A stretch of 64,000 bases of DNA from a candidate division FCPU426 bacterium (GTDB lineage: Bacteria; Oederibacteriota; Muellerivitia; Muellerivitales; DAHXKG01), in contig DAHXKG010000008.1 of NCBI GenBank assembly GCA_027366525.1, positions 26,556 to 90,555 of the forward strand. Reading direction: 5' to 3'. Shown in pieces: positions 10,317 through 55,251 of the stretch (its first letter is position 1; each line of letters starts with the position of its first letter). The notes under the pieces are model-generated. The model saw only the letters and a program-made list of their open reading frames with translations, searched no databases and was not told the DNA's origin. The position numbers and the translations under genes are program-made.

Positions 10317-10329
10317 AGTAGGAGATAAA

Positions 10330-12074: not shown

Positions 12075-12090
12075 GCGTTAAGGAGATGAA

Positions 12091-12998: not shown

Positions 12999-13074
12999 AT
13001 TGCACTAATTTTATTAAAGTTTTGAATATTCAAGGCGTTAGAGCTTGTAAGAAATTAATAATTGAGGTGCACAT

Positions 13075-13368
13075 ATGCGTATTAATGGGTTTCAAAATAT
13101 TCCTTCCGTTTTACAAACATTTGAAACTAAAGAACTCTCACAAGCTTCTACCCCGGCGTCGTCATCCAACACATCGGTCACATTAAGTCTATTTGCCGAA
13201 ACATTGAAGCAACTCCAGCGAGAAGCTGTTCAACAGTCAACAACCCACCAAACTAAAATTCAGCAAATGGCTCATCAAATTGAAACTGGAACCTTTCAAA
13301 TGCAATACGACAAGCTGGCCCAGCAATTGGATCAATTTCAATTATTTAATTGGGAGAATCCAGCATGA
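13075..13368 (+). CDS. flgM: anti-sigma-28 factor FlgM
   Basis: 97-aa protein. The C-terminus KIQQMAHQIETGTFQMQYDKLAQQL matches the FlgM sigma-28-binding region. Position upstream of flgN-flgK. Confidence 0.75.
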   Translation: MRINGFQNIPSVLQTFETKELSQASTPASSSNTSVTLSLFAETLKQLQREAVQQSTTHQTKIQQMAHQIETGTFQMQYDKLAQQLDQFQLFNWENPA

Positions 13369-13859: not shown

Positions 13860-13869
13860 GGAGGCTCAC

Positions 13870-19653: not shown

Positions 19654-21483
19654 ATGTCTAATGAAGCGATGTTTAGTGCGGTTTCAGGCCTGCAAGCAGA
19701 CAGCACATGGCTGGATGTTATCGGAAATAATATTTCCAATCAAAATACCGTTGGTTATAAAGCCAGTCGTTTGGAATTTGCAAGCCAGCTCAGTCAAACC
19801 TTAAATGCGGGTAGTGGTCCAGATCCCGGACAAAATTTAGGTGGTGTGAACCCGATGCAAGTTGGATTGGGTACTCGGGTTGAATCGATTCAAACTCTTT
19901 TTACGGAAGGCCCATTACAGCAGACGGGTATTTCTACGGATATTGCGATTGTGGGAAATGGTTTTATTGTTGCCAAGCAAGGATCGCAAACCGTATACAC
20001 GCGAGCTGGAAATTTAACATTTGATGGAAATGGAAATTTGGTTACGGCAAATGGTGCCATTGTTCAAGGCTACACTGCGTCGGAACAATTTACACAACAA
20101 ACGATTAACGCGGGTGCGGCGCCTCTAGTAGTTACATATTCTTCAGAAACTTTAACGACGAATGGAGTGCCTCAAAACATTCAAATCAATCAAAGCTTAA
20201 CCATTCCAGCTAAAGCAACATCCCAGGTTAATTTCACCGGTAACCTTGATTCATTTCAACAAGCAGATCAGCCAGGTGGCGTGTTGAATCTTGCGGTGGG
20301 TGGTGTGGATCAGCTTCCCGTTGCCGCTGCTACTTTCGCAGCAACAGCCAATCTTGAAGCTAACCCTAATAATGCAGCGGATACCGTCTTGCATCAAGAT
20401 GGAAATTACGCATTAAACGGTGCTGCAGCAGGCGCACAACAAGCCAATCCTTTAGTAACGGGTGGTGGTGTGAGTATTGCTGCTGCAAACGCTGATGCAA
20501 ACTATGTTTGGAATCAGAATCCACCGGTACCACCTGCCAAAACGGTTGTGACGACGATTTATAATTCAGTTGGAGACCCAATTCAAGTTACAACGCTATT
20601 TTATCAAGTTAATGATTTGGGACAGGCTGGAATTAACACTCCAACATCGGCTCAACCAAGTCAGGTTGCTTATGCGTGGTATTCTTTTAATACAACCGGA
20701 GGAGTACAACCCTATACCGGAGCTACGACAGCAACTCAAACTCCAAATTTATTGGGTGGATCAGGTATTATTGAAGGGTACAGCAGAAATACAGGAAATC
20801 AGTATGAAGGGGATTTAATATATTTTAACACGGATGGTTCGTTGGCATCCATGGGAGGAGTCGATGTAACTACGGGAACTCAAGTGGCCCCAACACTTTA
20901 TATCCCTCCGGCTAATCCAGGGATTCCAGCCGCTTCTCCGTTACCCACTAACGGCGCTCAAATTGTCGCTGCACAGCTTAACTTTGGGACAGCTGGAACA
21001 CTGGGTTTTGGTCAAAGAAATGGTCTTTTCAGTGATGCAGAAGGCAGCTATCAAGTAGTCAATGGGGTGAACACGTATGTACCGAGCAGTACAGCGTATG
21101 TGTCATCACAGAATGGTTATGCCGATGGTACCTTGCAGAGTGTGAGTTTTGACCAAACAGGAACGATTCAGGGTGCGTTTAGCAATGGACAAACGGTAGC
21201 ACTGGGGCAAATTGTTATGGCCAATTTTGCCAATCCGGATGGATTGAACAATATTGGTGGTACAGATTTCACGCCATCTTCCAATTCGGGACCAGAGTAT
21301 GTTGGATTGGCTGGTACCAATGGGTTGGGGACGGTTCAAGGAAGCACATTGGAAATGTCTAATGTGGACTTGACAACGGAACTATCCAACATGATTATTG
21401 CTCAAAATGCATTTGATGCAAATGCAAGAGTTGTTACGGTAGTGAGTCAAGAAGATCAGACTCTAACTCAATTGGGCCTGTAA
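19654..21483 (+). CDS. flgE: flagellar hook protein FlgE (copy 1)
   Basis: N-terminus FSAVSGLQADSTWLDVIGNNISNQNTVGYKASR and C-terminus GSTLEMSNVDLTTELSNMIIAQNAFDANARVVT. 609 aa with no Cys. Confidence 0.9.
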   Translation: MSNEAMFSAVSGLQADSTWLDVIGNNISNQNTVGYKASRLEFASQLSQTLNAGSGPDPGQNLGGVNPMQVGLGTRVESIQTLFTEGPLQQTGISTDIAIVGNGFIVAKQGSQTVYTRAGNLTFDGNGNLVTANGAIVQGYTASEQFTQQTINAGAAPLVVTYSSETLTTNGVPQNIQINQSLTIPAKATSQVNFTGNLDSFQQADQPGGVLNLAVGGVDQLPVAAATFAATANLEANPNNAADTVLHQDGNYALNGAAAGAQQANPLVTGGGVSIAAANADANYVWNQNPPVPPAKTVVTTIYNSVGDPIQVTTLFYQVNDLGQAGINTPTSAQPSQVAYAWYSFNTTGGVQPYTGATTATQTPNLLGGSGIIEGYSRNTGNQYEGDLIYFNTDGSLASMGGVDVTTGTQVAPTLYIPPANPGIPAASPLPTNGAQIVAAQLNFGTAGTLGFGQRNGLFSDAEGSYQVVNGVNTYVPSSTAYVSSQNGYADGTLQSVSFDQTGTIQGAFSNGQTVALGQIVMANFANPDGLNNIGGTDFTPSSNSGPEYVGLAGTNGLGTVQGSTLEMSNVDLTTELSNMIIAQNAFDANARVVTVVSQEDQTLTQLGL

Positions 21484-24075: not shown

Positions 24076-25191
24076 ATGGCCAAAAAATGCTTAGGATGGT
24101 TATTAATTCTTATTCTTTTACCAACGTTCGTATGGGCGAGTGGATTTTCCGATCCACAAAATGAATGGGAGTTTGGAAATGGGTATGGTCCTGTTACGGT
24201 TTTTCACCAATGGACATTAACGACTTCAAATTCAAATGCCAACATTGAACTTCAACAAGCTGTGAGCACAGTTTATCCTGGGGAAACGTATGCCGGAGCG
24301 GTAACATCAACATCCTCTTTAGCCTCAGACAATATCACGATGACTTATAGTGTGCCAAGTACAGTTACTGTTAGCGTTCCAAATTATTTACAAATTTATG
24401 TGAATTCATCCGTTTCATTAGCTTTTCATTTTATAGTTACGGACACTTCAGGAAATGCAGTTACACTAACGGCACAAATTATCAGTCCCGGGTGTGCGTC
24501 GTTGTCTTCTACGAGTGCAGATATATGGGATACAGTATTCGTTACCTTGACATCAGCACAAACCATTTTGAATAATATTTCAACGGTGCAAATTTCGACA
24601 AGCATGGGGAGTAATTCGCTTTCTTCAAGTCCAATTTATTTAGATAATTTAATAACCACTAGCCAAAATCCAGCTGCCGCATGTAATACGCCTACACCCA
24701 CACCGACACCAGTGCTCACAGCTATTCCAACGCCGACGGGAACTATTTTTACTCCTACATATACTCCCACGGGTTCAATTACTCCAACGCCGACTCCGAC
24801 TATTTTTATTACTCCGACACCAACGGCGACTGCAACGCCTATGTGTCCAATTTCGGTTTATCCAAATCCCATGAACTTTCAAGCAGGCCCAAATAGTTTT
24901 CCACCAGGCCCATACGTTAATCATTGTCCCAATGATCCATATGGATGCATTAAATTTGATTGTGTTCCATTTGGATCAACGTTAAAAATATATACCATTT
25001 CGTTAGAACTTGTGCAAACATTTGGACCGAATTCCATTATTCCAATGGGTAATGGAAATGGAAGAATTATTTGGGACGGCGACAATAGCAATCAGGATCC
25101 CGTTGCTGCGGGAATTTATTTTTATCTAATTACTAATCCTTTGGGGCATTGGACCGGTAAATTTGCAATTGAACAAGCGAGGCCCAATTAA
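24076..25191 (+). CDS. secreted protein with a Thr/Pro linker and a Por-type (T9SS-like) C-terminal sorting domain
   Basis: Signal peptide present. A TPTPTPTP...TPTPTATATP linker is followed by ISVYPNPMNF...GRIIWDGDNSNQDPVAAGIYFYLITN, which matches the Por_Secre_tail / FlgD-Ig-like consensus (vYPNPa...GvYfy). Confidence 0.55.
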   Translation: MAKKCLGWLLILILLPTFVWASGFSDPQNEWEFGNGYGPVTVFHQWTLTTSNSNANIELQQAVSTVYPGETYAGAVTSTSSLASDNITMTYSVPSTVTVSVPNYLQIYVNSSVSLAFHFIVTDTSGNAVTLTAQIISPGCASLSSTSADIWDTVFVTLTSAQTILNNISTVQISTSMGSNSLSSSPIYLDNLITTSQNPAAACNTPTPTPTPVLTAIPTPTGTIFTPTYTPTGSITPTPTPTIFITPTPTATATPMCPISVYPNPMNFQAGPNSFPPGPYVNHCPNDPYGCIKFDCVPFGSTLKIYTISLELVQTFGPNSIIPMGNGNGRIIWDGDNSNQDPVAAGIYFYLITNPLGHWTGKFAIEQARPN

Positions 25192-26153
25192 TGGTTCGGC
25201 AACGTTTTTTTTTGAAAATTCTTTTTTTCCTGATTTTTATTCCAACGATGGTTTGGGCCTCGTCAGGCTCGGCAGGAATAAGCGCATTTGATTTTTTGGA
25301 AATTTCACCCATTGCTCGAGCAACAGCCATGGGCGGTGCTTATGCGGCATTGGGGAATGATATAGGTTCTATTTATTATAACCCGGCCGGACTTGCGGAT
25401 ATTTTAACGACGCAAGTCGATGTTACATATCTGGATTTGTATCAAAATATTAGCGATGAATTTTTTGCATTTGCCTATCCTTTAAAACCCAAACTTTCTT
25501 CGATTGGAGGAACATTTGCTGCAGCATTGAATTTAATTCAAACCGGTTCATTCCCAAGATTAGATGATTTTGGAAATAATATTGGCAGTTTTACTAGTGG
25601 GATGGATGAATTTATGTTGGCGTATGCAAAATCGTTGGGTTCACGTGTGCAATTTGGATTGACCGCTAAATTCCTTAATCAACAGATTGATCAAATTTCA
25701 CAATCCGCTTTTGCTATGGATATCGGAACTTTAATTTTGCCGCCTGTATCTGGAATGCGCATTGGATTAGCGATCCAAAATCTGGGTGGAACAGTGAATA
25801 ATTTTAATTTGCCATGTATGCTTTTAGCAGCAGTGTCCTATCGCAAATATGATCTTTTCTCGTATCAAGATGATGGGGCTTTTACCGTTCAAACTACGGT
25901 TCCAATTCAACCTGTCGGGCAAACACCAGAAGTTCAAGTCGGTGCAGAATATAATTATAAGTTGGTGGGCCAACGGTTTAGTCTCCGCGGGGGCTATCAA
26001 TTTTTAAATAATTCTTTGCAAGGCATTGGAATGACGTTGGGGGCTGGTTATGGAGTCGATTTCAATGGAGCCGTCGTATTTATCGATTATGCCTTTGAAC
26101 CTGCAGGCGTTTTTGGAAATTCGAATCGTATTTCTTTGATTACTAAGTTTTAA
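25191..26153 (+). CDS. PorV/PorQ (FadL-like) family outer-membrane beta-barrel protein
   Basis: Signal peptide plus ARATAMGGAYAALGNDIGSIYYNPAGL hatch motif. 320 aa with a C-terminal aromatic residue (F). The start overlaps the stop of the sorting-domain protein. Confidence 0.6.
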   Translation: MVRQRFFLKILFFLIFIPTMVWASSGSAGISAFDFLEISPIARATAMGGAYAALGNDIGSIYYNPAGLADILTTQVDVTYLDLYQNISDEFFAFAYPLKPKLSSIGGTFAAALNLIQTGSFPRLDDFGNNIGSFTSGMDEFMLAYAKSLGSRVQFGLTAKFLNQQIDQISQSAFAMDIGTLILPPVSGMRIGLAIQNLGGTVNNFNLPCMLLAAVSYRKYDLFSYQDDGAFTVQTTVPIQPVGQTPEVQVGAEYNYKLVGQRFSLRGGYQFLNNSLQGIGMTLGAGYGVDFNGAVVFIDYAFEPAGVFGNSNRISLITKF

Positions 26154-26206
26154 TCATGTAAAATAGTTGATAATAATGAGCAACTTAATTTAGAGGGTAA
26201 TAAATT

Positions 26207-27154
26207 TTGAGAAAAATTTTTGTTATTTTGATGGTCTTTTTTTTAACAACAGGGGTTAGTTTAGCTGCCTCGCCTGGAACAACCGGAGGGAGCATTCTTC
26301 AAGTGGTGGAAGGCGCCATTCCAGCAGGTATGGGGGGGGCTTTTACCGCGATTGCAAGTGGTGATTATGCCATTGATTATAACCCGGCAGGATTGGTTTC
26401 CTTGGATGCTCCGGAAGCGGTGGCAATGTATCACTCTGAATTAGCAACTATTTCAGATGATTATTTTACCTTCGCGACTCCCATTAATACTACTCAAGCA
26501 ATTGCGTTGCATATTAGTTATGATTATATTCCGCCCATTAACAATGGAAATGGCAATCCGGCAGTTAATGCGTATGATATCTTATTTATGGGTACCTATG
26601 CATTTAAACTATCCAATTTTATTCAACTGGGTGCATCTTTAAAATATTTGAGGTCAGTTTTAGCTTATTATGGAACTTCAGCAATTGCTGTAGATTTAGG
26701 GGGACAAATTTCTCATCTGCCTTTTGGATTAAAGGGCGGCCTGGCCATTCAAAATCTGGGTGGACAGTTAAAATATTTGAGTGTGGGTGTGCCCTTACCT
26801 CTGATTATTCGCATTGGGCTTGGATGGGAAACATTGGTTGATCAAAAACGCAAATTAGAACTAGATTTAGATGTTGTGGATGATTCAAGTGAAGGCATGG
26901 GGATTCGATTGGGTGGGGAATATTGGGTGTTTCCAAGATTGTTTGCAATTCGAGCTGGAATCAATAAAATTTCGCAAAATGTTTATAATAGTGGATTCCC
27001 TCCAAGTCTTGGATTTACTTTGACAGATGAAGTTGACTCCAATAAGTATTCGTTAGATTTTGCCTACAACCCGGCTACTTTACCGGGATCCATTGTCGAT
27101 AATACGTATTTAGTGTCTTTGCGTTGTTCATTTGAAAACTGGACAATATTTTGA
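26207..27154 (+). CDS. PorV/PorQ (FadL-like) family outer-membrane beta-barrel protein, paralog
   Basis: Signal peptide plus AIPAGMGGAFTAIASGDYAIDYNPAGL motif. 315 aa, ends in F. TTG start. Confidence 0.55.
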   Translation: MRKIFVILMVFFLTTGVSLAASPGTTGGSILQVVEGAIPAGMGGAFTAIASGDYAIDYNPAGLVSLDAPEAVAMYHSELATISDDYFTFATPINTTQAIALHISYDYIPPINNGNGNPAVNAYDILFMGTYAFKLSNFIQLGASLKYLRSVLAYYGTSAIAVDLGGQISHLPFGLKGGLAIQNLGGQLKYLSVGVPLPLIIRIGLGWETLVDQKRKLELDLDVVDDSSEGMGIRLGGEYWVFPRLFAIRAGINKISQNVYNSGFPPSLGFTLTDEVDSNKYSLDFAYNPATLPGSIVDNTYLVSLRCSFENWTIF

Positions 27155-27319: not shown

Positions 27320-28705
27320 ATGGTGATCGACTTTAAAGAAATTTTAAAATCGTGCGATATTCGTGGAGTTTATCCAACACCATTAGGCGAGCATCAAGCC
27401 GAACGTCTTGGCCAAGCTATTGGTTTCTTTTTAAAATCACAAAAGCATTTGTCAATTCGTGTAGTTGTGGGGCATGATATCCGTGCTTCCAGTGCGAATT
27501 TAAGCAATGCCCTAATTTTAGGTCTTAAGAAATCAGGATTGAAAATTTTTGATATGGGTTTGGTATCCACCCCAATGTTGGCATTTGGATCCCGATTTTT
27601 GAATACTCCGGTAGGAATTATGGTCACAGCATCCCATAATCCTCCAGAATATAACGGATTTAAATTTTTTAATTATGGAGACCCAAGTTCTCCAGATTGG
27701 ATTTCAAAAATTTATCAAATTTTTAAAACAGAACAAGCCTGTAAAGGGGCTGGTATTGTCGAAAACCAGGAGCTACTATTGACATATCGGAATGTTCTGC
27801 TTCGTGAACTGGGAAAAAGTTTTAGTGGATTCAAAGTAGTGGTGGATGTTGGAAATGGCATGGCAGCGATGACAGTTCCTCCAGTCCTCCAATCGCTAGG
27901 GTGTAGTGTCACGATTATGAATGGGCAAATGGATCCTTCTTTTGCTTCTAGGGGACCCGATAGCTCCTCATTTTTAGCATTGAAAAAACTAGGTGAGCAG
28001 GTAGTTGAACACCAAGCCCAGCTTGGACTTGCATTTGACGGAGATGCAGATCGAGTTAGTTTTGTGGATGACCAAGGTCGAATTTTTCCAAATGATTATA
28101 TACTTTGTTTATTTGCTGAAAATTTTTTGAAAAACAATAAAAACGCTAAGGTCGTATACGACAGTAAATGCTCAGAATGGGTTGCAGAAATTGTGCGACG
28201 CGAAGGCGGGAAGCCCATTTTGGAACGCTCAGGGCATTCGTTTATTTTTTCAAGAATGCAAGCCGAAAAAGCCTTTATGGGTGGCGAAGTCAGTGGTCAC
28301 TTTTTTTTACCGGGAGGATTTCCAGGCGACGCTCTTTATGCAGCACTGAAATTGATGGAAATTTTAAAATCCCAGAATAAATCGCTTGGTTTTTTTTATG
28401 ATATATACCCACGGCGATATTCCACCCAAGATGTTAAGGTTGAAATGAATGAGAATCTTTTTAATGAAATATCCGATCAGTTTAAAAAAGTAGCAATGGA
28501 ATTATCGGCTAAAATTTCAACGCAAGATGGAATCAGAGTAGTTTTAGAGGATTCATGGTGTTTGGTTCGACAGTCGGTCACGGAACCTAAAATTATTTTC
28601 CGATTTGAATCTACATCAAGAGAGGCATTGGTGAAAACAATCCATGTATTTTTAAATCAACATTCCATGCTAGAAAATCATGTGCTTGAGGCAATCGAAA
28701 GTTGA
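27320..28705 (+). CDS. phosphomannomutase/phosphoglucomutase (alpha-D-phosphohexomutase family)
   Basis: Active-site loop TASHNPPEYNGFKF. The metal-binding motif DGDADR is present. Confidence 0.85.
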   Translation: MVIDFKEILKSCDIRGVYPTPLGEHQAERLGQAIGFFLKSQKHLSIRVVVGHDIRASSANLSNALILGLKKSGLKIFDMGLVSTPMLAFGSRFLNTPVGIMVTASHNPPEYNGFKFFNYGDPSSPDWISKIYQIFKTEQACKGAGIVENQELLLTYRNVLLRELGKSFSGFKVVVDVGNGMAAMTVPPVLQSLGCSVTIMNGQMDPSFASRGPDSSSFLALKKLGEQVVEHQAQLGLAFDGDADRVSFVDDQGRIFPNDYILCLFAENFLKNNKNAKVVYDSKCSEWVAEIVRREGGKPILERSGHSFIFSRMQAEKAFMGGEVSGHFFLPGGFPGDALYAALKLMEILKSQNKSLGFFYDIYPRRYSTQDVKVEMNENLFNEISDQFKKVAMELSAKISTQDGIRVVLEDSWCLVRQSVTEPKIIFRFESTSREALVKTIHVFLNQHSMLENHVLEAIES

Positions 28706-35552: not shown

Positions 35553-37364
35553 ATGAAAACGATTTTACATTGGATGGGTAATTTGCATTTGAATTTATCA
35601 AGTGAAGTTAAAAAAGTGATTATAAAAACAAGCATACTTTTTTGGGTATTGAGTGTTGGGTTGTTAACGCTTGGGACATCACAATCCTATGCTTCCCCAG
35701 ATCCATTATTCGTCAATGGAAATGAGGTTGTAACGAGTGCCGGCTGCACGGTTCATCTTCGTGGGGTCGATATTGATAGCATGGAATGGTATGATGGTAA
35801 TGGAGATCCTGGAGAAGGCCCTCCCGGTGGATATGGAGGAACCATTATTGGTTCGGTCCAAGAGGCGGTAACGGCTTGGCATGTGAGTATTATTCGTCTG
35901 CCACTGAATCAAGATTTTTGGTTTGGATGTGGAGGAGCGGGTGCAGTAACTTATCAAGACACTGTGGCTAATATTGTTAATTATTGCTCAACTAATAATG
36001 TCTATGTGATTCTCGATTTACATTGGTCAGGAACCTATGCAGGGCTTGCCACGGCAGGTGCAACCACGTACACCTCACCTTGTTCAGGAGCAGGATGGGG
36101 TACGGCAACGGGGCAGCAATCCATGGCGGACGGAAATGCGGTTACCTTTTGGAGTTCCGTGGCGGCAACGTATGCCAATAATCCTGCGGTTTTATTTGAT
36201 TTATATAATGAACCCTTTGTTTCCAGCTGGTCTGTTTGGCAATATGGTGGAACAACCGGTGGCATACCGGCTTGGACACCGGGGATGCAAGGACTCTTGA
36301 ATGCAGTAAGAGCTACTGGCGCTAATAATATTTGTTTAGCGGGTGGACTGAGTTATGCACACAATTTAACTCAAATTTGCGATTACCCATTAACAAATGT
36401 TGGAAATGGTATTGTTTTTTCTGCCCATATTTATGGAAATCAACTAGGCGATACTTCATCAGGATGGGGGCCTGATATTGATCCGGCAACTGTGTGTGGC
36501 CCAGTATTTATTGGTGAGATGGGACCTTCAACTAGTTGTAATACTAATAATAGTACTTTTGATAGCAATGTTTTTTCGTGGATTGATAACACGACTGGAA
36601 TTATAGGAGGCACAGCATGGTCGATGACTACCACGTCTTGCCCAAATCTTTTGACAAGCTATAGTAATTTTGTTCCAACTTCTTGGGGTATGGCTGTTTC
36701 TACATGGTTAACAACTCCAGTTCCAACATGTGTATCCTCCCCCATCCCCACAAATACGGTAACATCAACTCCAACCATTACGGCAACAGCAACAGTTACC
36801 AAAACACCCACAGTTACTCCCACGATTACACTTACTGGGACTTCAACCGCAACGCTGACGGTTACGAATACGCTAACAATAACACCAACAGCTACACCAA
36901 CGGCAACGTTAACACCAACGCTTACGCCAACATGGACTCCCACAGGAACGATTACTCCACAAGTAACCAATACGGCTACTCCTACAAAAACTCCTACGGT
37001 GACCCCAACCCAGACTCCGACCATAACTCCGACAATAACGTCAACGGTTACGATAACGGCTACTCCATCACTGGTTCAAGACTCTATATCTTATCCATAT
37101 CCGAATCCGCCCGAATTGGGTGGATCAATTTTTGTTCAGATTAAAACAAGTCAAATTTCAACAGTAACCTATTCAGTTTTTACAACGGCATATCGAAAAA
37201 TTTTTGAAAGAGAAGTAGCAATTGATGGAAATGGGATTATCAGTTGGAACTTGTTAGATCAAAATGGAGGCAAAGTTGCCAACGGAGTGTATTATTTAAA
37301 AATAGTTGTTAAAAATCTAAACGAAACATTACAAAGAATCGATAAAATTATTATTATTCAATAA
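35553..37364 (+). CDS. glycoside hydrolase family 5 endoglucanase with a Thr/Pro-rich linker and a Por-type C-terminal sorting domain
   Basis: GH5 catalytic motifs LYNEPF (acid/base) and FIGEMG (nucleophile). A roughly 110-aa TPT repeat linker is present. The C-terminus YPYPNPPELGGSIFVQIK...NGVYYLKIVVKNLNETLQRIDKIIIIQ matches the Por secretion tail consensus. Confidence 0.8.
   Translation: MKTILHWMGNLHLNLSSEVKKVIIKTSILFWVLSVGLLTLGTSQSYASPDPLFVNGNEVVTSAGCTVHLRGVDIDSMEWYDGNGDPGEGPPGGYGGTIIGSVQEAVTAWHVSIIRLPLNQDFWFGCGGAGAVTYQDTVANIVNYCSTNNVYVILDLHWSGTYAGLATAGATTYTSPCSGAGWGTATGQQSMADGNAVTFWSSVAATYANNPAVLFDLYNEPFVSSWSVWQYGGTTGGIPAWTPGMQGLLNAVRATGANNICLAGGLSYAHNLTQICDYPLTNVGNGIVFSAHIYGNQLGDTSSGWGPDIDPATVCGPVFIGEMGPSTSCNTNNSTFDSNVFSWIDNTTGIIGGTAWSMTTTSCPNLLTSYSNFVPTSWGMAVSTWLTTPVPTCVSSPIPTNTVTSTPTITATATVTKTPTVTPTITLTGTSTATLTVTNTLTITPTATPTATLTPTLTPTWTPTGTITPQVTNTATPTKTPTVTPTQTPTITPTITSTVTITATPSLVQDSISYPYPNPPELGGSIFVQIKTSQISTVTYSVFTTAYRKIFEREVAIDGNGIISWNLLDQNGGKVANGVYYLKIVVKNLNETLQRIDKIIIIQ
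36740..37070 (+). repeat. low-complexity ACN/CCN codon repeat encoding the Thr/Pro linker of the GH5 protein
   Basis: Read directly. Produces spurious alternate-frame ORFs (36659..37024 - and 36683..37144 +). Confidence 0.8.
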
Positions 37365-39403
37365 GCGAGTTTTTGGCGAATGTAATTTATTGCCTGTTGG
37401 GCTTGGATGTTATTAGGGTTTATCTGAAGCGTTTTGTGGAACCAATGGACCGATTGTAATAAATTATTTAATTGATAATTAATAACCCCCAAATAATAAT
37501 AAGCGTTTTCAAATTTTGAATTGATTTGAATAGTCTGATGAAGCCAAAATTTGGATTTCTGAAATTTTCCTAAAAAATAATAAGCAATTGCAATTTGAAA
37601 TGAATATTGTGGATTTTGTGGATTCCAATGGTGTGCCCATAGGAATTGGTGCATTCCTTTTTTTATGAGTGATTGGATTTTTAAAGCATTTTTTGGAAAA
37701 GAAGCTAACGCTTTTTTCAATTTCATTGCGCGTTGTATATAATAAGAGCCTAACCAAGTCCGGGCAATCGAATAGTCATTTAAAATAGTAATTCGCGTAC
37801 GATTATCTAAGGAATTATCTGGACTCCTGAAATTGGGAAGTTGCATGGTTTTCCAAATGGAAAGATCTATTTGGGGATTGAAATTTTTATCATCAGTGTT
37901 CAAAAACATTCGTTCCGTGATGCCATAGGGATAAGTTTTTGAATTTTGAAAGTAGGTATGCGGAGAAATATAAAAATTAAAAAAATAACGATGATTTGGA
38001 TTATGGGCAACCATCCAGTGAAATAAGTGTCCATGAATGTACTCTTTTCCATGATGATTAGTGGGATAAAATATTTTTAAATGTGGATGTAAGTGTAACT
38101 GGTCTAATCGATACCAGGCCATCGGTAAGCTTCCTGATCCAAGAACGACTAGATCTTTTCGTTGACCGCGAATTAATTGAAGGTACCAGCATGGGAATTC
38201 AACCGCATCACCTTTACAAAAAAAGAATGCATGACGGGGTAGACTTCTCCAGGCATTTAGAATGTAGTTATACGTATAGGTGTAAAAGGTTTGTTGATTT
38301 TTAATGGTTCGAATATTGATGAGTAAAAACACACAAAATAATGAAATTAAGGAAATTAATCTTTTTTTTCTTTTTAAATAGTTGAAAGAATCGATGAAAA
38401 AATCAAAACCCAAGGCAGAAAATACGACTAAAAAAAACAGAGAACTGATGGAAAAGTTTCGAAGTAAATAAAATTTTGATTTTGGGAGGTTAACATAAGT
38501 TATTAGTACGACGACGAAAGCAATCCAACTGATTGCGAGTCCGGTGATAAAAGTATTTTTTTTCTTCCAAATCCAATAGAGTCCTAAAAGACTAAAGACA
38601 CCTATTCCATAAAATTCTTGGATGCAAAGTTTAAAGTAGAATTCTAACTGTTGAATCCATTTTAATGGCGACCCAAAAATTTCTCGAGAATTTTGGTATT
38701 CCATTCTAAAAACATGGAATAGAAATTTTTTATAATTGCTAGGATCTCCCCAATTAATTAATGGATTTTGTATAGCACGAAGTGGTAAATAAAGATAAGT
38801 GGATAGGGCAATTAGTATGAAAGATAAACCCACAATAATTTTTTTAAAATCAAGTGTTCTTTTTTTATAGATTGAAACGATACTCCAAGTGATTCCAATC
38901 GAATATCCTAGGATGCTCATCCAATGATTGGTAAGCGAGAGTCCCCAAATAAAGCAAAACAGTAAAAATTTTCCTTGTGAAAGAAAATAAAATATTAAAA
39001 TTAAGAATAAGACAGTCAATACATAAATTCCGGTTTTGGCACTTAACGAGGCGGTATAGCTATCGATGCCGGTCATCCAAAGTAGTGAAAAAGTCAAACC
39101 ACAAGTCGTGGAAAGATTTAATCGGTTTTTTAAAAAAAGAAACAGTAACGCACAGACACAAGCAGTGAGAAATGCCGAGAGTAAATTGATCCGAAAACAA
39201 ACTTGTGAAAGGGGAAGTAGGGAGAATAAATGGGCAATGAGAATAAATAGAGGATATCCTGGAGGATGCGCAATGCCTAGAGTAGTGGAGGAAGAAATAA
39301 TTTCTGGGCTATCATCTAAATAAAAAGTTGGATTTAAACCGATTAGACTGTACAAGAATGCACAAAGAAAAATTCCAGAACTAATCCAAAGGTTTCGATT
39401 CAT
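37358..39403 (-). CDS. DUF2723-family polytopic membrane protein (protein O-mannosyltransferase / TMEM260-like) with C-terminal TPR repeats
   Basis: Hallmark N-terminal motif GIAHPPGYPLFILIAHLF. At least 10 predicted TM helices. C-terminal TPR-like repeats (AYYFLGKFQKS..., AYYYLGVINYQLNN...). Confidence 0.7.
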   Translation of the reverse strand: MNRNLWISSGIFLCAFLYSLIGLNPTFYLDDSPEIISSSTTLGIAHPPGYPLFILIAHLFSLLPLSQVCFRINLLSAFLTACVCALLFLFLKNRLNLSTTCGLTFSLLWMTGIDSYTASLSAKTGIYVLTVLFLILIFYFLSQGKFLLFCFIWGLSLTNHWMSILGYSIGITWSIVSIYKKRTLDFKKIIVGLSFILIALSTYLYLPLRAIQNPLINWGDPSNYKKFLFHVFRMEYQNSREIFGSPLKWIQQLEFYFKLCIQEFYGIGVFSLLGLYWIWKKKNTFITGLAISWIAFVVVLITYVNLPKSKFYLLRNFSISSLFFLVVFSALGFDFFIDSFNYLKRKKRLISLISLFCVFLLINIRTIKNQQTFYTYTYNYILNAWRSLPRHAFFFCKGDAVEFPCWYLQLIRGQRKDLVVLGSGSLPMAWYRLDQLHLHPHLKIFYPTNHHGKEYIHGHLFHWMVAHNPNHRYFFNFYISPHTYFQNSKTYPYGITERMFLNTDDKNFNPQIDLSIWKTMQLPNFRSPDNSLDNRTRITILNDYSIARTWLGSYYIQRAMKLKKALASFPKNALKIQSLIKKGMHQFLWAHHWNPQNPQYSFQIAIAYYFLGKFQKSKFWLHQTIQINSKFENAYYYLGVINYQLNNLLQSVHWFHKTLQINPNNIQAQQAINYIRQKLAY

Positions 39404-44501: not shown

Positions 44502-44993
44502 TTAATTAATATCAGCAACCCCAAGCGTGGTGTCGAAAAGTGTTTCAATTTGCTCACCGACTGGAGTTCCAGAAATAGTGGCCTGTGCTTGGAGCGTTGG
44601 AATGATGGTGGGTATGCTTTGAACTAAAGCCTGCACAGTTGGCACTACGGTTAAGTTAACAGTGGGCATTGGTTGAGGTGTGAAGTTCGGATTAGGCGTA
44701 AATACGAACGTCGGGAATGGTTGAGGTGTGAAGTTCGGATTAGGCGTAAATACGAACGTAGGAAATGGTTGGGGTGTGAAGTTCGGATTAGGCGTAAATA
44801 CGAACGTTGGGAATGGTTGAGGCGTGAAGTTCGGATTGGGTGTCCAAACCGGCCTAAAATGATTCCAAAACATCGGATCAGCATTGGCTTTACGACTGTT
44901 TGCTAGCGTAGCTATACCAATGACGGCAATAGCAACCGCAACTAAGCCCACAGACGCTAAAAGCCTGAACAACGACTTTTTTTGACTCTTCAT
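44502..44993 (-). CDS. secreted Pro/Phe/Thr-rich protein with 4 tandem 16-aa repeats (FTPQPFPTFVFTPNPN) - cassette copy 1
   Basis: The ORF track gives 44502..45008 (GTG). The ATG at 44993 is preceded by GGGAGG at a 7-nt spacing. The signal peptide is MKSQKKSLFRLLASVGLVAVAIAVIGIATLA. The conserved C-terminus is PTVQALVQSIPTIIPTLQAQAT...LGVADIN. Confidence 0.65.
   Translation of the reverse strand: MKSQKKSLFRLLASVGLVAVAIAVIGIATLANSRKANADPMFWNHFRPVWTPNPNFTPQPFPTFVFTPNPNFTPQPFPTFVFTPNPNFTPQPFPTFVFTPNPNFTPQPMPTVNLTVVPTVQALVQSIPTIIPTLQAQATISGTPVGEQIETLFDTTLGVADIN
44669..44860 (-). repeat. four tandem 48-nt repeats within the Pro-rich gene
   Basis: GAAGTTCGGATTAGGCGTAAATACGAACGT(C/T/A)GG(G/A)AATGGTTG(A/G)GGTGT units read directly. 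Alternate frames give spurious Arg-rich ORFs (44651..44884 -, 44673..44906 +). Confidence 0.9.
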
Positions 44994-45059
44994 AATGGGT
45001 CCTCCCACTAAATTTTTATTTAATGCAAGATCTCTTCAAAGACCTTGATCGTGATATAG

Positions 45060-45737: not shown

Positions 45738-46424
45738 TTATTGAATTTTTTTAAGTTTGTTTAAGATCTTAGCTCTTAATTTTAAAGCTTTCAAACGCAG
45801 AGGAGGGTCAATGAAACAGTGAAATATTTTGTTAAGTTCATATAAAGCAACAGAGATTTTTTTTTCTTTGTAATAAAATAAAAACGATAAGGCATAATAT
45901 GCTTTGGCCATGGTAGGATCAAGCTGAACAGCTTGCCGAAATTCATGAATCGAAACGGCTATTTTTTTAAACTTATAGTCAATCAGTCCTAAATAATAGT
46001 GAATAATTGAAATTTGAGCATCCAGTTTATCCGCAATCTCGAAATTTTTTTGTGCCAAATTAAAATGACCGGAGTCGTAATAAGTTCGACCTAAATAGAT
46101 ATAGTTCATCGGCATGGCTGGGGAATGAGCTTCAACCCAGAGAAAATTTGTTTCAGCTGTTAAATAGTTGTGGAGATAGTAGGACGAAACGCCAAGATAA
46201 AAATGCGCTCCTGTATTGGTTGAATTAAAGGTTAAGACTTTTTTAAAATCATTGGATGCTTTTAAAAAATGGTACTGTTTAAGATTTTTAATCCCAATCA
46301 GGAAATCCTTGCGAGCTGTTTTTTTAGAATAAGACGCCAAGGATAGGGATGGAATTATAGCGAGTATAAGGGATAGAAGGAAAATTTCTAAAGTGATGAA
46401 AAGTAATTTGGCTTTAAAGCTCAT
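45738..46424 (-). CDS. secreted TPR-repeat protein (cassette copy 2)
   Basis: Signal peptide MSFKAKLLFITLEIFLLSLILAIIPSLSLA. Paralog of 43739..44407. The start overlaps the stop of the response-regulator gene. Confidence 0.6.
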   Translation of the reverse strand: MSFKAKLLFITLEIFLLSLILAIIPSLSLASYSKKTARKDFLIGIKNLKQYHFLKASNDFKKVLTFNSTNTGAHFYLGVSSYYLHNYLTAETNFLWVEAHSPAMPMNYIYLGRTYYDSGHFNLAQKNFEIADKLDAQISIIHYYLGLIDYKFKKIAVSIHEFRQAVQLDPTMAKAYYALSFLFYYKEKKISVALYELNKIFHCFIDPPLRLKALKLRAKILNKLKKIQ

Positions 46425-47775
46425 GGCAATAATTTTCTAAGTGGTATTTTAAAATCTTGTATTGTAATGCTGAGCGAGAAAAACCCAAATCTTTTGCAGC
46501 ACGACTTTGATTACCATTGTTTTTCTGCAATGCTTGTAAAATAAAGGATTTTTCAATTTCTTCTAAAGTTTGGGTTAGCGTGCCCTTCCATAGCGTAGAG
46601 GTAGAAGTTGTCGGGGTGGTGGATGTGGGTTCGGGCGAAATATTTAACAGGGAAGTTCCATCAGAGAACACGACTGCGCGCTCCAGTGTATTTTGTAATT
46701 CTCGTATATTTCCAGGCCAGGAATAGTTTTGAAAGGCTAGAAGTGATTGAGGGTTCAATGGAATGCGTGATTTAGAGGTTTCTCGAAAAAACTTTTCCAG
46801 AAAATGATCAATGAGCAAGGGCAAATCTTCAAGACGTTCGCGAAGCGGGGGGAGGTTGATTTGAGCAACATTAAGACGATAAAAGAGGTCTTCGCGGAAT
46901 AAGCCTTTTTCAACTTGGAGCTTAAGATCTTTATTTGTTGCAGCTACGACACGCAAGTCGATCTTTATGAGGCGACTTCCACCAACCCGTTCAAATTCCT
47001 TTTCCTGAAGAACTCGCAGAAGTTTGACCTGAATTTCTGGAGAAATTTCACTGATTTCATCTAAAAATAATGTTCCGTTTTGAGCTAACTCAAATCGTCC
47101 TATTTTCGAGTAGTTGGCTCCGGTAAAGGCTCCTTTTTCATGCCCAAATAATTCTGATTCCAAAAGACTTGGGGCCAGTGCCGCACAATGCACGCGAATT
47201 AGCGGGTTTGTTTTCCATGGACTGGATTCGTGGAGTGCCTGAACAACCAGTTCTTTTCCAGTGCCACTTTCGCCAGTAACTAAAACCGTAGTCTTCGTTG
47301 AGCTTAGCTTGCGAATATTTTCATAAATTTGAAGCATGATAGGGCTATTGCCGATCATTTTTCCCTGATAATGTGAAAGTTCATCTTTGAGTCGACGATT
47401 TTCAATTTTAAGTGTTCGAACTTGAAGACTATTTTGGATTTTCAGGTGTAATTCATCCATTGAAAAAGGTTTGATGATAAAGTCAGAAGCACCTAAACGC
47501 ATCGACTGTACAGCATCATCAATGGTTCCATAGGCAGTCATGATCAAAACATTCAGTTCCGGATCAATTTCTTTGGAAGCTTTTAAAAGGTCAAGACCGG
47601 TAAAACTAGGCATTTTTAAATCAGTTAATAATAAATCAATATGATTTTTTTTTAAAATCTCTAAGGCTTGAGCTCCCGAAGTCGATATGGTTACTTGATA
47701 CCCTTGGTCGGTTAAATATTGTTCAATGACATCGCACATATCTGATTTGTCATCAACAACAAGGATGTTGCTCAT
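46414..47775 (-). CDS. sigma-54-dependent two-component response regulator (NtrC family: receiver + AAA+ + Fis-type HTH)
   Basis: Receiver ILVVDDKSDMCDVIEQYL...DLLLTDLKMP. Walker A VLVTGESGTGKE. GAFTGA motif. The C-terminal HTH is SRAAKDLGFSRSALQYKILKY. A Thr/Pro linker (PEPTSTTPTTSTST) precedes the HTH. Confidence 0.9.
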   Translation of the reverse strand: MSNILVVDDKSDMCDVIEQYLTDQGYQVTISTSGAQALEILKKNHIDLLLTDLKMPSFTGLDLLKASKEIDPELNVLIMTAYGTIDDAVQSMRLGASDFIIKPFSMDELHLKIQNSLQVRTLKIENRRLKDELSHYQGKMIGNSPIMLQIYENIRKLSSTKTTVLVTGESGTGKELVVQALHESSPWKTNPLIRVHCAALAPSLLESELFGHEKGAFTGANYSKIGRFELAQNGTLFLDEISEISPEIQVKLLRVLQEKEFERVGGSRLIKIDLRVVAATNKDLKLQVEKGLFREDLFYRLNVAQINLPPLRERLEDLPLLIDHFLEKFFRETSKSRIPLNPQSLLAFQNYSWPGNIRELQNTLERAVVFSDGTSLLNISPEPTSTTPTTSTSTLWKGTLTQTLEEIEKSFILQALQKNNGNQSRAAKDLGFSRSALQYKILKYHLENYCHEL

Positions 47776-49226
47776 TTTGAAAGATCCTTTTGATATGAAA
47801 AAATAAGTTGAAAAATGGCTCCACCTTCTGGTCGATTTAGTACATGGATAATGCCTTTGTGAGCACGGATTACTTTATCAACAAAAGCTAGTCCAAGTCC
47901 AGTCCCGGAAGATTTGGTACTAAAAAAGGGTTTAAATAAATTGGGACGTATGGCATTAGAAATTCCAGGCCCAGTATCTTCAACACTTAAAATGGCCTGT
48001 GAATTTTCTGATTGTAATCGCAAAGTCAACGTTCCGCCGGTGGGCATTGCTTGAAGTGCATTAATTCCTAGATTTAATAAGCCGCTGCTGACAAGCGTCG
48101 TGTCAACAAGAAGGGGAGCACAAGGTTCAATAGCAGTGATGATCGCCACATTTTGTTTTTGAGAGAGTTGGAGTAATGTCTCTTTGAGATTGAGTATTAA
48201 TTCATTTAAATTAACAAGCTTAAGTTGTAATTGAAGGGGACGGCTATATTCTAAAAATTGGGTTACTAAACTATTTAAAGCTTGAACTTGATTTTGAATT
48301 TTATGAGCTGCCATAGCAAGATCAGGAAGTGTTTCAATTTTTTTTTCAATCCACTCGGCTTGTCCACGAATAACACTTAATGGATTTCTTACTTCGTGTG
48401 CAATCCCAGCCGCAATTTCTTTTAAATCTTGAGCAAGGCGTTCTAATTCGGATTCTCGATTTTGAATGCGTGCAGACATAATATCGAGCGAGTGTATCAA
48501 GGTGCCCAGTTCGTCAATACGAGTAGTTTTAATTGAGGGGGGATAGTTGCCAGCAGCAATGGAGTGAGCGAGATGGGTAATCTCCTCAACCGGCTTTAAT
48601 ACCGTTTGCGCAATAAAAGTGTTAAGAAAAGTAATAATAATAAGTCCAATAATACCAAATAGGAAATAGATATTTCTAAATTGACGAAGGCTATCCAAAT
48701 AACGTGGATTTGCATCGACCTGTAGAATCCAGTGATGGATTTTTAATGGAATAAAAGCAGATTGGTGAAGTAATCCAAAACTACCCCGATGAATTGGAAG
48801 GCAAATAGCATGCCCATGTCTGAGTTGGGTCAGTGTTTGGTCATTTAAAACGTCACTTTTAAATCCTTCAATCGCTTCTCCGGTAGAGTCCTTTAAGACA
48901 ATTCCATGGGAATTTAAGATTAAAATATTTTCAAAAACTCCAGCTTTTAAAAGGGCTTTCAATTGTTTGGAAAAATGACGAACAGTTGGAGATGTATTTA
49001 AAACATCAGGTTGTAAATAGGGGGGTAATTGAGGAGAAATGCTTTGAGCAACAAGCCGACCCGCAGCAAGTAGCTGATTTCCCATTTTGGTTTCTAGCGT
49101 AGTTACGATCATGCGATAAATAACGATACCCGTAATTAGCGAAAATAATAACCAAAGTGAGGCATAGAGTAGAAGTAATTTGGTTTTGAAGGATTGTCTT
49201 AATCGTTGGATTAGGGACATGAACAA
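47772..49226 (-). CDS. membrane-bound sensor histidine kinase (two TM helices flanking a ~150-aa periplasmic domain, HAMP, HisKA, HATPase)
   Basis: H-box AAGIAHEVRNPLSVIRG. G-box GTGLGLAFV. TM helices LLLLYASLWLLFSLITGIVIY and IYFLFGIIGLIIITFL. Its stop overlaps the response-regulator start. Confidence 0.85.
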   Translation of the reverse strand: MFMSLIQRLRQSFKTKLLLLYASLWLLFSLITGIVIYRMIVTTLETKMGNQLLAAGRLVAQSISPQLPPYLQPDVLNTSPTVRHFSKQLKALLKAGVFENILILNSHGIVLKDSTGEAIEGFKSDVLNDQTLTQLRHGHAICLPIHRGSFGLLHQSAFIPLKIHHWILQVDANPRYLDSLRQFRNIYFLFGIIGLIIITFLNTFIAQTVLKPVEEITHLAHSIAAGNYPPSIKTTRIDELGTLIHSLDIMSARIQNRESELERLAQDLKEIAAGIAHEVRNPLSVIRGQAEWIEKKIETLPDLAMAAHKIQNQVQALNSLVTQFLEYSRPLQLQLKLVNLNELILNLKETLLQLSQKQNVAIITAIEPCAPLLVDTTLVSSGLLNLGINALQAMPTGGTLTLRLQSENSQAILSVEDTGPGISNAIRPNLFKPFFSTKSSGTGLGLAFVDKVIRAHKGIIHVLNRPEGGAIFQLIFSYQKDLSK

Positions 49227-52476: not shown

Positions 52477-55251
52477 TCATGTTAATTTTGCTGAAGTGTT
52501 CAAGAAAAGACAAGCCTTTAGGAAATTATTTTCTTGAGAATAGGCAAGTTCAAATCCAAGTTTCCGAACTAGGTTTTGCATTTTTATATTTTCAGGTAAA
52601 ATATGCCCAACAATAGTTTCTAATCCTTCTTGTTTCCCAATCATAATTAATTGTTGTAGTAACTCAAATCCAACGCCTTGATTTTGCCAGGCATCACTGA
52701 CAACAACGGAAAATTCACGTTCGAATGGCTTAGCAGAACGGCTAAGACGAGCCACCCCTAAAATAAAGTCTTCTTTCTGTGCATTACAATAGTGAGCTAC
52801 TAAGGCCATTTCTCGAGCATAATCAATAAAACAAAGACGTAATAAACGATCATGGGCAATGCGTTGATTCAAGTTTAATGCTTTAAAATATCGTTGATAA
52901 ACACTTTGTTCTGATAGTTCTTTGTGAAATTTGATTAAAAGGGGCTCGTCTTCAGGACTGATAGGACGAATGGTAATTAACTGATTGGTTTTGGAGTGAA
53001 TGGATTTTAAATATTGAATAGGATAAGGACGAATGGCAGGCTTGGGCAGTAATTTAGGATCTAAAGTCAATGGATGTAAAACCATTCGAGCATCTAGGGA
53101 TAAAATTTGATCGGGCGAAGCTAAGAGCGGGTTAATATCGACTTCTTTTAATAAGGGTTGCTCTACAATCATCTGGCAGAATCGAACAATAAGTTTTTCC
53201 AATGCTTCCATGGGAATAGGTGCTCTTCCTCGGACGCCTTTAAGGGCCGAGTGAATTTTAGTTTGTTCAATCATATTTCGCGCAAGAACGGTATTTAGCG
53301 GTGGAATTTCTAATGTAGTATCTTTAAAAACTTCAACTAATTGCCCGCCAAGTCCAAAAAGGACAATGGGCCCAAATTGCGGATCAAGACTGCTTCCTAA
53401 AATTAATTCGTAACCTTCTGTACGGATCATCGGTTGAACGGTCACTCCTTGGAAATGGGAGGCCCCAGCTTTTTGAGTAACAGTAGTTTTAATTAAGACA
53501 AAAGCTTGTTCAACGGCTTCAGGCGTTTTCAAGTTTAATTGCACGCCTCCAACATCGGTTTTATGTGAAAGAGTGGTTGAATTAAGCTTAAGAACAACAG
53601 GGAACCCAATTTGGCGTGCCGCTTGAACGGCTTCTTCAGGACTATTGGCAAGCAGGGAAGGAGTCACCGGAATGCCATAAAGACTTAAAATTTCTTTAGA
53701 CTCTTGCTCAGTTAAAAGAGTCCGATTTTCTTTCTGAATTTTTAAGAGCTTTTGAGAAACTTTTTCATAGCTCAGGCGAGAATTATTTTCTTGTATAGAA
53801 ATAGGTGTTTCATAAAGTCGGGATAGATTAAATTGATATTTCCACATGTAATTAAAAAGGTGAACGGCAGTGTCTGGATAGGAATAAGTGGGAATACCGG
53901 ATTGATTCAGAAATTGAATAATGGGATCAATTTCTAATCCACCCATAAAACTCGCAATGAGGGGTTTGGAAGGGTGTGACAGCGTCGATAATTTTTCAGC
54001 AACCTCTTTGGGATGTGTCATGGCTTGGGGGGTTAAAACGACTAAAACGCCATCAGTACTTTCACAATCAAGGGCAGTTTGAACTGCCTTAAGATATAGT
54101 TCAGGCGTTGCATCGCCTAAAATATCGATGGGATTGGAATGACTCCAATGGGGGGAAAGAAATTGGTTGAATTTATCTAAGGTTTGTTCAGAAAGGGGGG
54201 CGAGTTCGCCTCCTTCTTGAATTAAAAGATCAGTGGCAAGTACGCCAGGACCTCCCGCATTAGTTACAATGGCCAATTTTTTACCACGGGGTCTAGGTTG
54301 TTTGGAAAGAATTTCGGCAGTGTAAAAAAGATCTTCAATTTTTTCTACGCATAGAACGCCACAGCGCCGGAAAGCCGCGCGAAGAACTGCATCGCTGACA
54401 GTGAGTGATCCTGTATGTGAGGCGGCGGCTTTAGCAGCTGCTTCTGTACGTCCAGCTTTGATCACAATAATCGGTTTAGTTAAAGCCACTTCACGTGCTG
54501 AGGAAAGGAATGAATTTGCATTTCCAATACTCTCCATATAAATAATAATACTTTTGGTGTGGGCATCGTTCCCAAGATAATCAATGAGATCTCCCCAATC
54601 CAAATCGAGCATCGATCCAATGGAAACAAAAGAGCTAAACCCAACATTGGATTTGAAGCTCCAATCTAGAATGGCGGTCCCTAAGGCCCCGCTTTGACTT
54701 AGAAAGGCTACGCTTCCGGGATTGGCTATCGTGGTGGCAAAAGTTCCATTGAATTGACTATGAGGATTCATGACTCCAAGACAATTCGGTCCAATAATGC
54801 GAAAAGATTTATTATGAATGATTGTTTTGATTCGTTTCTCTAAAAGAATACCTTCATTGCCTTGCTCTTTGAATCCAGCAGAGATAACAATGGCTCCTTG
54901 AATATTACATTGGATGCATTCTTCAATAAGTTCCGGAACGGTGCGGGCAGGCGTTACAATGATTGCTAGTTCTGTGGGGTGAGGAATTTTTTGAATGCTC
55001 GGGTAACATTTTAAACCTAAAAGCTGTGAATGTTTAGGGTTAACGGGATAAAGGCCTGAATTTTTTAATGGACTTTGAAATAAATTGGTTAGGATGGAGT
55101 TCCCAACGCTTTCGGGGCGATCCGTGGCACCGATAATTGCAACCGATTGAGGTTTGAAAAAAATATCGAGTGCATGGGGTCGGGTAAGAAGTACATCACT
55201 GGATCGGTCTGGAAAGGATGGATTTACGGAAGTGGTCATAAAGTACCTCAT
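52477..55251 (-). CDS. Pat-like bifunctional ADP-forming acyl-CoA synthetase family protein with a C-terminal GNAT acetyltransferase
   Basis: N-terminal CoA-binding region ([17 protein letters not shown]), succinyl-CoA-ligase-like and ATP-grasp regions, and a C-terminal GNAT motif [15 protein letters not shown] probable alternative start is the ATG at 55239, preceded by GAGG. Confidence 0.75.

Follow-up and report, generated by a model that had tools for sequence, protein, structure and literature searches.

Human TMEM260 (PDB 9RQL, 9RQM, and 9RQN) is an endoplasmic reticulum (ER) protein O-mannosyltransferase for the IPT domains of plexins, cMET, and RON. The paper reporting its discovery mentions "distant homologs in bacteria." A gene for a bacterial homolog, a protein of the DUF2723 family, is located on the minus strand of a 64,000-nt stretch of contig DAHXKG010000008.1 from a candidate division FCPU426 bacterium (the window), beside a gene for a secreted GH5 protein. 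The prediction that the DUF2723 protein is a periplasm-facing, lipid-phosphate-sugar-dependent glycosyltransferase of the TMEM260 type is solid, and protein O-glycosylation is its likely activity. The explanation that best covers all observations, to which we give slightly better than even chances, is a TMEM260-type inner-membrane enzyme that O-glycosylates the Thr/Pro linkers of sorting-domain cargo.

Like the DUF2723 protein, TMEM260 carries PF11028 and consists, in the same order, of an ~11-helix GT-C core, a Rossmann-like domain, and a five-helix TPR domain. Its active side likewise faces away from the cytoplasm, and D52, H67, R264, Y267, D441, and an R-x-D motif are conserved between the two proteins. 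Unlike TMEM260, the DUF2723 protein is bacterial and would act in the periplasm, not the ER, its donor would have to be a bacterial polyprenyl phosphate instead of a dolichyl phosphate, and its likely acceptors are repetitive Thr/Pro tracts in place of a single site. GT39 enzymes (yeast Pmt1/2/4, Pmt of Mycobacterium tuberculosis and Streptomyces, and Cbes_1864 of Caldicellulosiruptor bescii) form a different family. Their catalytic base is in loop 1, whereas that of the DUF2723 protein is predicted in a separate Rossmann-like domain; the DUF2723 protein also has no MIR domain and has a TPR domain. TMTC1–4 (GT105; cadherin O-mannosyltransferases) share the order of a GT-C domain followed by luminal or periplasmic TPRs for client selection. 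By description, their TPRs are far more numerous and they lack a Rossmann-like domain carrying a catalytic Asp, and there is no detectable sequence-family relationship to the DUF2723 protein.

Pseudomonas aeruginosa TfpW is similar in size (646 aa) and layout: it has 11 transmembrane (TM) helices, its N-terminus is cytoplasmic, and a TPR domain at the C-terminus lies in the periplasm. This enzyme attaches glycans to Ser/Thr of pilin, and its gene adjoins that of its substrate. A bacterial 11-TM GT-C enzyme with a periplasmic TPR domain can thus glycosylate a protein encoded next door. Unlike the DUF2723 protein, TfpW belongs to an Emb/ArnT-like family with a DDX motif and transfers D-arabinofuranose oligomers, and no homology between the two was detected in searches. 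YfhO-family GT-C proteins are polytopic extracytoplasmic glycosyltransferases that use polyprenyl-phosphate sugars. They are a similar type of enzyme, but the YfhO-like gene near the closest DUF2723 orthologs encodes a separate protein.

A reading of the window made from its letters and open reading frames (ORFs), here called the sequence-only reading, had recognized a polytopic ORF carrying the motif GIAHPPGYPL and assigned it to DUF2723, with C-terminal TPRs and kinship to protein O-mannosyltransferases. The ORF is present at the claimed position (Table 1), with the motif at aa 43–52 and up to four further upstream codons possible at its start, and the assignments were borne out by family searches, structure modeling, and near-invariant functional residues. 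Pfam PF11028 (TMEM260-like, DUF2723) matches aa 31–167 (E=4.7e-16; 59.5 bits, cutoff 24.2), and TPR_1 and TPR_2 match above cutoff at aa 633–665. Using phmmer, human TMEM260 (9RQL) aligns with E=1.1e-22 (query 20–468, chain 41–506), and identity to it is about 20–25%. A profile of 66 homologs aligns with 9RQL in one continuous stretch (E=8.4e-77; profile 12–602, chain 30–640) that spans the membrane core and the Rossmann-like domain and ends at the TPR start. No GT-C chain other than TMEM260 was found in a PDB sequence search with the query. Neither PMT (PF02366) nor PMT_2 (PF13231) matched the query at E≤0.01, and PF13231 annotation is limited to some of its distant homologs.

Functional residues of TMEM260 were set by structure and mutagenesis in a 2026 cryo-EM preprint, and their conservation was counted in the alignment of 66 homologs. 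D52 and H67, the loop-1 sugar-recognition motif, correspond to D31 (kept in 65/66) and H46 (66/66) of the query, within LDDSPE...GIAHPPGYPL. R264 and Y267, the residues of the donor-loading loop that contact phosphate and sugar, correspond to R233 (64/66) and Y236 (38/66). D441 of the Rossmann-like domain, which activates the acceptor Thr as general base, corresponds to D399 (64/66, with E in the other two). D399 is part of K397-G398-D399, an instance of the R/K-G-D motif of the TMEM260 family, and is followed by a conserved R-x-D motif (R415 and D417) with D417 in 66/66. Five of the six functional residues tested are kept in the query, including the catalytic base. For TMEM260, acceptor recruitment also depends on a ladder of TPR asparagines; the profile alignment to 9RQL stops where the TPR domain starts, and a TPR Asn conserved in 53/66 homologs is Q603 in the query. 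Because nearly all tested catalytic residues are intact, the enzyme probably glycosylates exported proteins in the periplasm.

An AlphaFold2 model built on a 66-sequence alignment has a pLDDT of 92.3 and a pTM of 0.91. It shows a GT-C fold with about eleven membrane helices, and ALG12 and Pmt4 are its closest matches in two fold libraries without 9RQL; the best matches are dolichyl-phosphate-mannose enzymes. Alternating strands and helices at aa ~371–533 form an alpha/beta domain. The TPR domain is made of a long helical hairpin, two canonical TPRs, and a capping helix, with helices at 598–680. The model thus combines a GT-C fold with a C-terminal TPR domain that faces away from the cytoplasm.

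From here we infer the donor sugar, the protein nature of the acceptor, and its identity. Mannose is a plausible donor sugar, favored by three of four mannose contacts being kept and, indirectly, by the pairing with GH125 genes described below and the dolichyl-phosphate-mannose enzymes among the fold matches. Conservation of the catalytic Asp in the Rossmann-like domain, together with the TPR domain, favors a protein acceptor. Thr/Pro linkers are classic O-glycosylation targets. For this reason, and because TMEM260 binds extended, proline-spaced peptides, its TPR domain alone being sufficient for binding (cryo-EM preprint), they fit well as acceptors. By homology, this would be an inner-membrane enzyme whose active site faces the periplasm. 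The ~11-helix core would bind a polyprenyl-phosphate sugar, most likely mannose, with the D31/H46 loop and the R233/Y236 loop holding the sugar-phosphate. A groove formed by the TPR and Rossmann-like domains would grip an extended stretch of the acceptor polypeptide, and D399 would act as general base on a Ser/Thr hydroxyl for an inverting transfer. Acceptors would be Sec-exported proteins that are still unfolded or disordered in the periplasm. The likeliest are the long Thr/Pro linkers of cargo with sorting-like domains, such as the GH5 protein and the product of ORF 24076..25191, where linker glycans potentially stiffen the linker and shield it from proteolysis.

All six frames of the window were searched for Thr/Pro tracts using a sliding-window scan. 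The sequence-only reading had listed several Thr/Pro-linker proteins, and two of these stand. The GH5 tract is 139 aa with 56 T and 21 P, and that of ORF 24076..25191 is 73 aa with 23 T and 18 P. Both proteins have N-terminal hydrophobic signal-like segments and a C-terminal domain (CTD) of ~80 aa that starts with YPNP and resembles type IX secretion system (T9SS) type A sorting domains. All T9SS sorting-domain models, such as TIGR04183 and PF18962, score below their curated cutoffs on these C-termini; the GH5 C-terminus scores 17.0 bits against TIGR04183 (cutoff 23). A GH5 ortholog from locus L083 scores 20 bits where the sorting-domain cutoff is 27. ORF 24076..25191 is directly upstream of tandem PorV/PorQ-family genes, which are taken only as context for sorting-domain cargo. 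The third listed protein, FliK (16078..18672, with a Flg_hook domain), has a short Ser-rich tract at aa ~83–125 (13 S, 9 T, and 3 P). The "24-kb cargo protein" of the list must be the ORF at window position ~24 kb, since the longest stop-to-stop frame in the window is 926 codons and a 24-kb gene is thereby ruled out.

Two further ORFs over the GH5 linker, 36659..37024 (−, 121 aa) and 36683..37144 (+, 153 aa), are frame artifacts of repetitive Thr/Pro-coding DNA, not genes; the antisense one is VGV-rich and the +1-frame one N/Y-rich. As a separate observation, 24076..27154 (+) combines a Thr/Pro-linker protein with a YPNP domain and tandem PorV/PorQ genes in a flagellated genome whose DUF2723 relatives are FCPU426-like, not Bacteroidota.

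Table 1. Coordinates of the DUF2723 gene, its predicted domains, candidate acceptors, and genes at related loci (window coordinates unless a locus is named).
Feature	Coordinates	Strand	Details
Predicted DUF2723/TMEM260-like GT-C glycosyltransferase gene	37358..39403	−	681 aa, ATG start
Membrane GT-C core, aa 1–~370	38294..39403	−	About 11 predicted membrane helices
First periplasmic loop, predicted sugar-recognition motif, aa 29–52, with D31 and H46	39248..39319	−	Alignments to TMEM260
Predicted donor-loading-loop residues R233..Y236	38696..38707	−	Alignments to TMEM260
Periplasmic Rossmann-like domain, aa ~371–533, with G398-D399 and R415-x-D417	37805..38293	−	Model, 9RQL alignment
Predicted catalytic-base codon, D399	38207–38209	−	Alignment to TMEM260 D441
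C-terminal helical/TPR domain, aa 534–681	37361..37804	−	Pfam TPR, model, TPR structure matches
Stop-codon overlap at the convergent gene ends, tcaataa	37358..37364		7 nt
GH5 secreted protein, candidate acceptor	35553..37364	+	603 aa; PF00150 E=7e-27
GH5 catalytic domain	~35847–36626	+	
GH5 Thr/Pro linker	~36687–37103	+	Sliding-window scan
GH5 C-terminal sorting-like domain	~37110–37361	+	
Second candidate acceptor, secreted protein with Thr/Pro linker and C-terminal YPNP... domain	24076..25191	+	
Thr/Pro linker of second candidate acceptor	~24655–24873	+	
Two PorV/PorQ-family outer-membrane protein genes	25191..26153, 26207..27154	+	NF033709, 128 and 130 bits (cutoff 90)
YfhO-like polytopic gene, ~690–790 aa	L083:5660–8026, L084:5629–8008, L085:5960–8011, L086:5918–7996		Upstream, overlaps or abuts DUF2723 start
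GH125 genes, ~620–640 aa	L087:10180–12069, L089:10199–12070, L093:7925–9826, L094:7566–9476, L095:9964–11889	Same as DUF2723	Immediately 3′ of DUF2723
Paralog block (L016, L030, L034, L044)	About 6000–13600 per locus		~600-aa ORF, DUF2723 paralog, sigma54 response regulator, convergent ~315-aa ORF, 158–213-aa protein

Gene neighborhoods were compared across 20 ortholog-level loci, consisting of the window, L003–L006, and L083–L097. The convergent pairing of DUF2723 with GH5 recurs in three diverged loci (L083, L084, and L086). In each, convergent genes beyond DUF2723 encode large secreted proteins that have the CTD type seen in the window and Thr/Pro tracts reaching ~500 aa, ~200 of them Thr; a GH5 ortholog (40–43% identity over the catalytic domain, E down to 1e-94) is always among them. 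The GC content of these loci is 54–63%, versus 38% in the window, and the outer flanks differ. Given this divergence in sequence, GC content, and flanks, the proximity of DUF2723 and GH5 has outlasted considerable divergence and rearrangement. An earlier conclusion that GH5 pairing is not conserved, drawn from 80 reference-genome loci in which GH5 matches covered the linker and CTD only, is wrong for the closest orthologs, which are outside that collection. Across all loci with the closest DUF2723 and GH5 orthologs (L083–L095), GC content is 45–63%, and the window is a compositional outlier in its clade.

Other sugar-related genes recur at these loci. The YfhO-like gene of L083–L086 has a weak YfhO-like C-terminus below the Pfam cutoff, and is split in L084 into a pair of ORFs. 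Its product resembles another GT-C-type enzyme, apparently encoded in one operon with the DUF2723 ortholog. No homolog of it was found in the window. GH125 genes (alpha-1,6-mannosidase family) are directly downstream of DUF2723 in 5/20 loci and encode proteins with no visible signal peptide. Characterized GH125 enzymes are ~200 aa shorter than these proteins. In L087, L090, and L092, the DUF2723 locus is downstream of genes for a mannose-family phosphotransferase system and a GH57 gene, and in L089, L090, and L092, small GT2 and sugar-modification genes are nearby. In addition, a membrane protein of ~620–645 aa with a TPR-like C-terminus recurs in three genomes (L086:3882–5750, L088:11886–13799, and L091:10854–12773 and 12805–14739). 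Its members match one another with E ~1e-130, have no Pfam annotation on record, and may represent another glycosyltransferase-like family.

A longer DUF2723 paralog (780–800 aa) is found in a conserved block of four metagenome-assembled genomes (MAGs) labeled as three different phyla. The 158–213-aa protein of this block consists only of a signal peptide, a Thr/Pro linker, and a CTD. No ORF with a Thr/Pro tract was found in the other DUF2723 loci of these genomes (~84 kb).

The proposal that Thr/Pro linkers are the substrates, which goes back to the sequence-only reading, is moderately supported by the recurrent GH5 pairing, the paralog block, and a GT39 precedent in Caldicellulosiruptor bescii. 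In that organism, deletion of one GT-C enzyme encoded near celA left Thr/Pro-linker glycoside hydrolases wholly unglycosylated and cleaved more (PMC6151902). The C. bescii enzyme is a GT39 protein, from a family distinct from DUF2723 (PMC6151902). As a within-locus control, immediate DUF2723 neighbors were compared with all other genes of the same loci using a one-sided Fisher test. Thr/Pro tracts are encoded by 6/38 immediate neighbors and 12/191 other genes (odds ratio 2.8, p=0.056). The association of DUF2723 with Thr/Pro proteins is suggestive but not established, and the linkers of GH5 and similar proteins are plausible, not proven, targets. A raw difference in the density of Thr/Pro-tract ORFs, at 1.13 per 10 kb for orthologs versus 0.11 for distant paralogs, was rejected as evidence because it is lineage-confounded.

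Several points weigh against linker glycosylation and trim the original proposal. The enrichment is only marginal and its loci are non-independent, with three of the six positive loci sharing ancestry. About half of the ortholog loci have no Thr/Pro-tract gene nearby. FliK is a flagellar type III substrate that exits via the flagellar export channel. This route should bypass a periplasmic enzyme, and with its Ser-rich tract in place of a Thr/Pro linker FliK is implausible as an acceptor. In the window, the DUF2723 gene shares an operon with no candidate acceptor; it is convergent with GH5 and divergent from a DUF445 gene at 39539, and so forms a single-gene transcription unit. The 7-nt overlap with the 3′ end of GH5, as given in the sequence-only reading, is exact by stop-codon positions (GH5 TAA at 37362–37364 (+); DUF2723 TGA, on the reverse complement, at 37358–37360). 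It was rejected as evidence of functional coupling, since convergent genes are not co-transcribed and the junction has no terminator-like signal. No polyprenyl-phosphate-sugar synthase (GT2) or GtrA-like flippase was found in the window, and no experiment on a bacterial DUF2723 protein was found in the searchable literature, where the name appears only in the TMEM260 discovery paper. TMEM260 R355, a mannose contact in TM helix 10 (cryo-EM preprint), corresponds to N316 in the query and is not conserved, being N or D across the clade. The sugar may therefore differ from mannose. Human R355A keeps ~20% activity (cryo-EM preprint), so N316 is compatible with activity and R355 is not strictly defining.

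A further point against linkers is the specificity of human TMEM260, which requires a sequon and acts on IPT domains rather than mucin-like tracts (cryo-EM preprint). The sequon, read by the TPR domain, is ~20 residues long, ends in G-G-x-x-T/S, and is part of an Ig-like domain (cryo-EM preprint). The bacterial enzyme could likewise be directed to a single Ser/Thr site within one type of fold, for example the Ig-like sorting domain starting with YPNPxxGG, an NHL-repeat protein, or a bacterial IPT/TIG domain, with linker proximity incidental; we consider this unlikely. Sorting domains start, by eye, with a P-x-P-x-x-G-G motif, NHL-repeat genes recur near the orthologs, and many genomes encode several DUF2723 paralogs with different C-termini, which suggests client-specific enzymes. 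The enrichment of Thr/Pro neighbors, not being significant, also leaves room for such an enzyme. However, the CTD motif only loosely resembles the TMEM260 sequon, and the IPT sequon P-x5-P-x3-G-P-x2-[GA]-G-G-x2-[ST] has no match in the six frames of the 64-kb window, where a single loose partial match is inside the GH5 catalytic domain. Conserved neighbors of the closest relatives carry Thr/Pro tracts and CTD alike, so these data cannot separate modification of the domain from that of the linker.

An acceptor other than protein is improbable. In this case, the enzyme would transfer sugar from a polyprenyl-phosphate donor to lipopolysaccharide core, O-antigen, or another envelope polysaccharide or lipid, like ArnT, YfhO, or the GT-C parts of three-component glycan-modification systems, and the TPR domain would serve complex assembly. 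The YfhO-like and sugar-modification neighbors of relatives are consistent with such a role. Against it, the Asp of the Rossmann-like domain that in TMEM260 activates the Thr hydroxyl of a peptide is near-invariant. So is the contiguous arrangement of TM, Rossmann-like, and TPR parts, whose groove holds peptide in the solved TMEM260 complex. Similarity to TMEM260 (E=1e-22) is far above that to any glycan-modifying GT-C. A catalytically inactive TPR scaffold or chaperone for envelope or secretion proteins is highly improbable, as nothing specific favors it apart from Q603 in the query where 53/66 homologs have a TPR Asn, and the ORF is intact and confidently folded with donor-binding and catalytic residues kept except R355.

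A bolder form of the linker-glycosylation explanation is offered tentatively, as a possible rather than a probable outcome. Bacterial DUF2723 proteins would be prokaryotic ancestors of metazoan TMEM260 and, in this uncultured diderm lineage, would build a mucin-like O-mannosyl coat on Thr of the linkers of sorting-domain cargo, independently of GT39. They would share its split mechanism, with the donor bound in the membrane and the catalytic base in the periplasmic Rossmann-like domain. The coat would cover hundreds of linker Thr in cargo such as GH5, S8 peptidases, and NHL proteins, and potentially would be lengthened by the YfhO-like GT-C neighbor and trimmed by GH125.

The window is a chromosomal stretch of a flagellated diderm that encodes FlgH, FlgI, FlgK, FliK, FlgE, and FapA. 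Promoter-like and terminator-like matches around the DUF2723 gene are no more frequent than in shuffled sequence. A PGM/PMM gene at 27320..28705 is probably housekeeping and was not used as evidence. The window has genes for two large FlgE-like hook proteins, one at 19654..21483 (+, 609 aa) and the other 36 kb away at 57345..59225 (+, 626 aa); these, FliK (864 aa), and FlgK (728 aa) are unusually long for flagellar components. A 168-aa ORF at 44502..45008 (−) has a signal-like N-terminus, four near-perfect tandem repeats of FVFTPNPNFTPQPFPT, and no Pfam match. It is part of a minus-strand run with TPR proteins, a sigma54 response regulator (46414..47775), and a histidine kinase (47772..49226). 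The 924-aa fusion at 52477..55251 (−) joins an ADP-forming acyl-CoA synthetase-like region, with CoA-binding, succinyl-CoA-ligase-like, and ATP-grasp domains, to a C-terminal GNAT acetyltransferase. We take its architecture to be that of Pat-type protein lysine acetyltransferases.

The DUF2723 protein belongs to a known family and is present in databases as unnamed or "DUF2723 domain-containing." The exact protein is already public (P0001, 100% identical), under no informative name, on a 97-kb ENA metagenome contig, and identity drops to ~41% for its next relatives. Some 50 full-length orthologs with 31–41% identity have the DUF2723 and TPR architecture and come from uncultured lineages labeled FCPU426 or "bacterium." Among the matches listed, distant paralogs are found in MAGs of Goldbacteria, Firestonebacteria, Elusimicrobia, and "Spirochaetia," often several per genome, and the matches listed from the metagenome collection add five ortholog-level loci. 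The DUF2723 family is widespread, with more than 570 confirmed loci in each of two collections.

The outcome is best described as a sound annotation that brings a substrate hypothesis with it; it does not amount to a discovery. If the enzyme does O-glycosylate Thr/Pro linkers, this would be the first role assigned to the bacterial DUF2723 family, and the TMEM260 mechanism would predate animals. It would also be relevant to heterologous expression of glycoside hydrolases from uncultured bacteria, as unglycosylated linkers are prone to proteolysis (PMC6151902). If the mucin-like coat exists, it would represent a GT39-independent pathway of protein O-mannosylation outside Actinobacteria. The main value is a concrete substrate hypothesis for an uncharacterized bacterial family related to a human disease enzyme.

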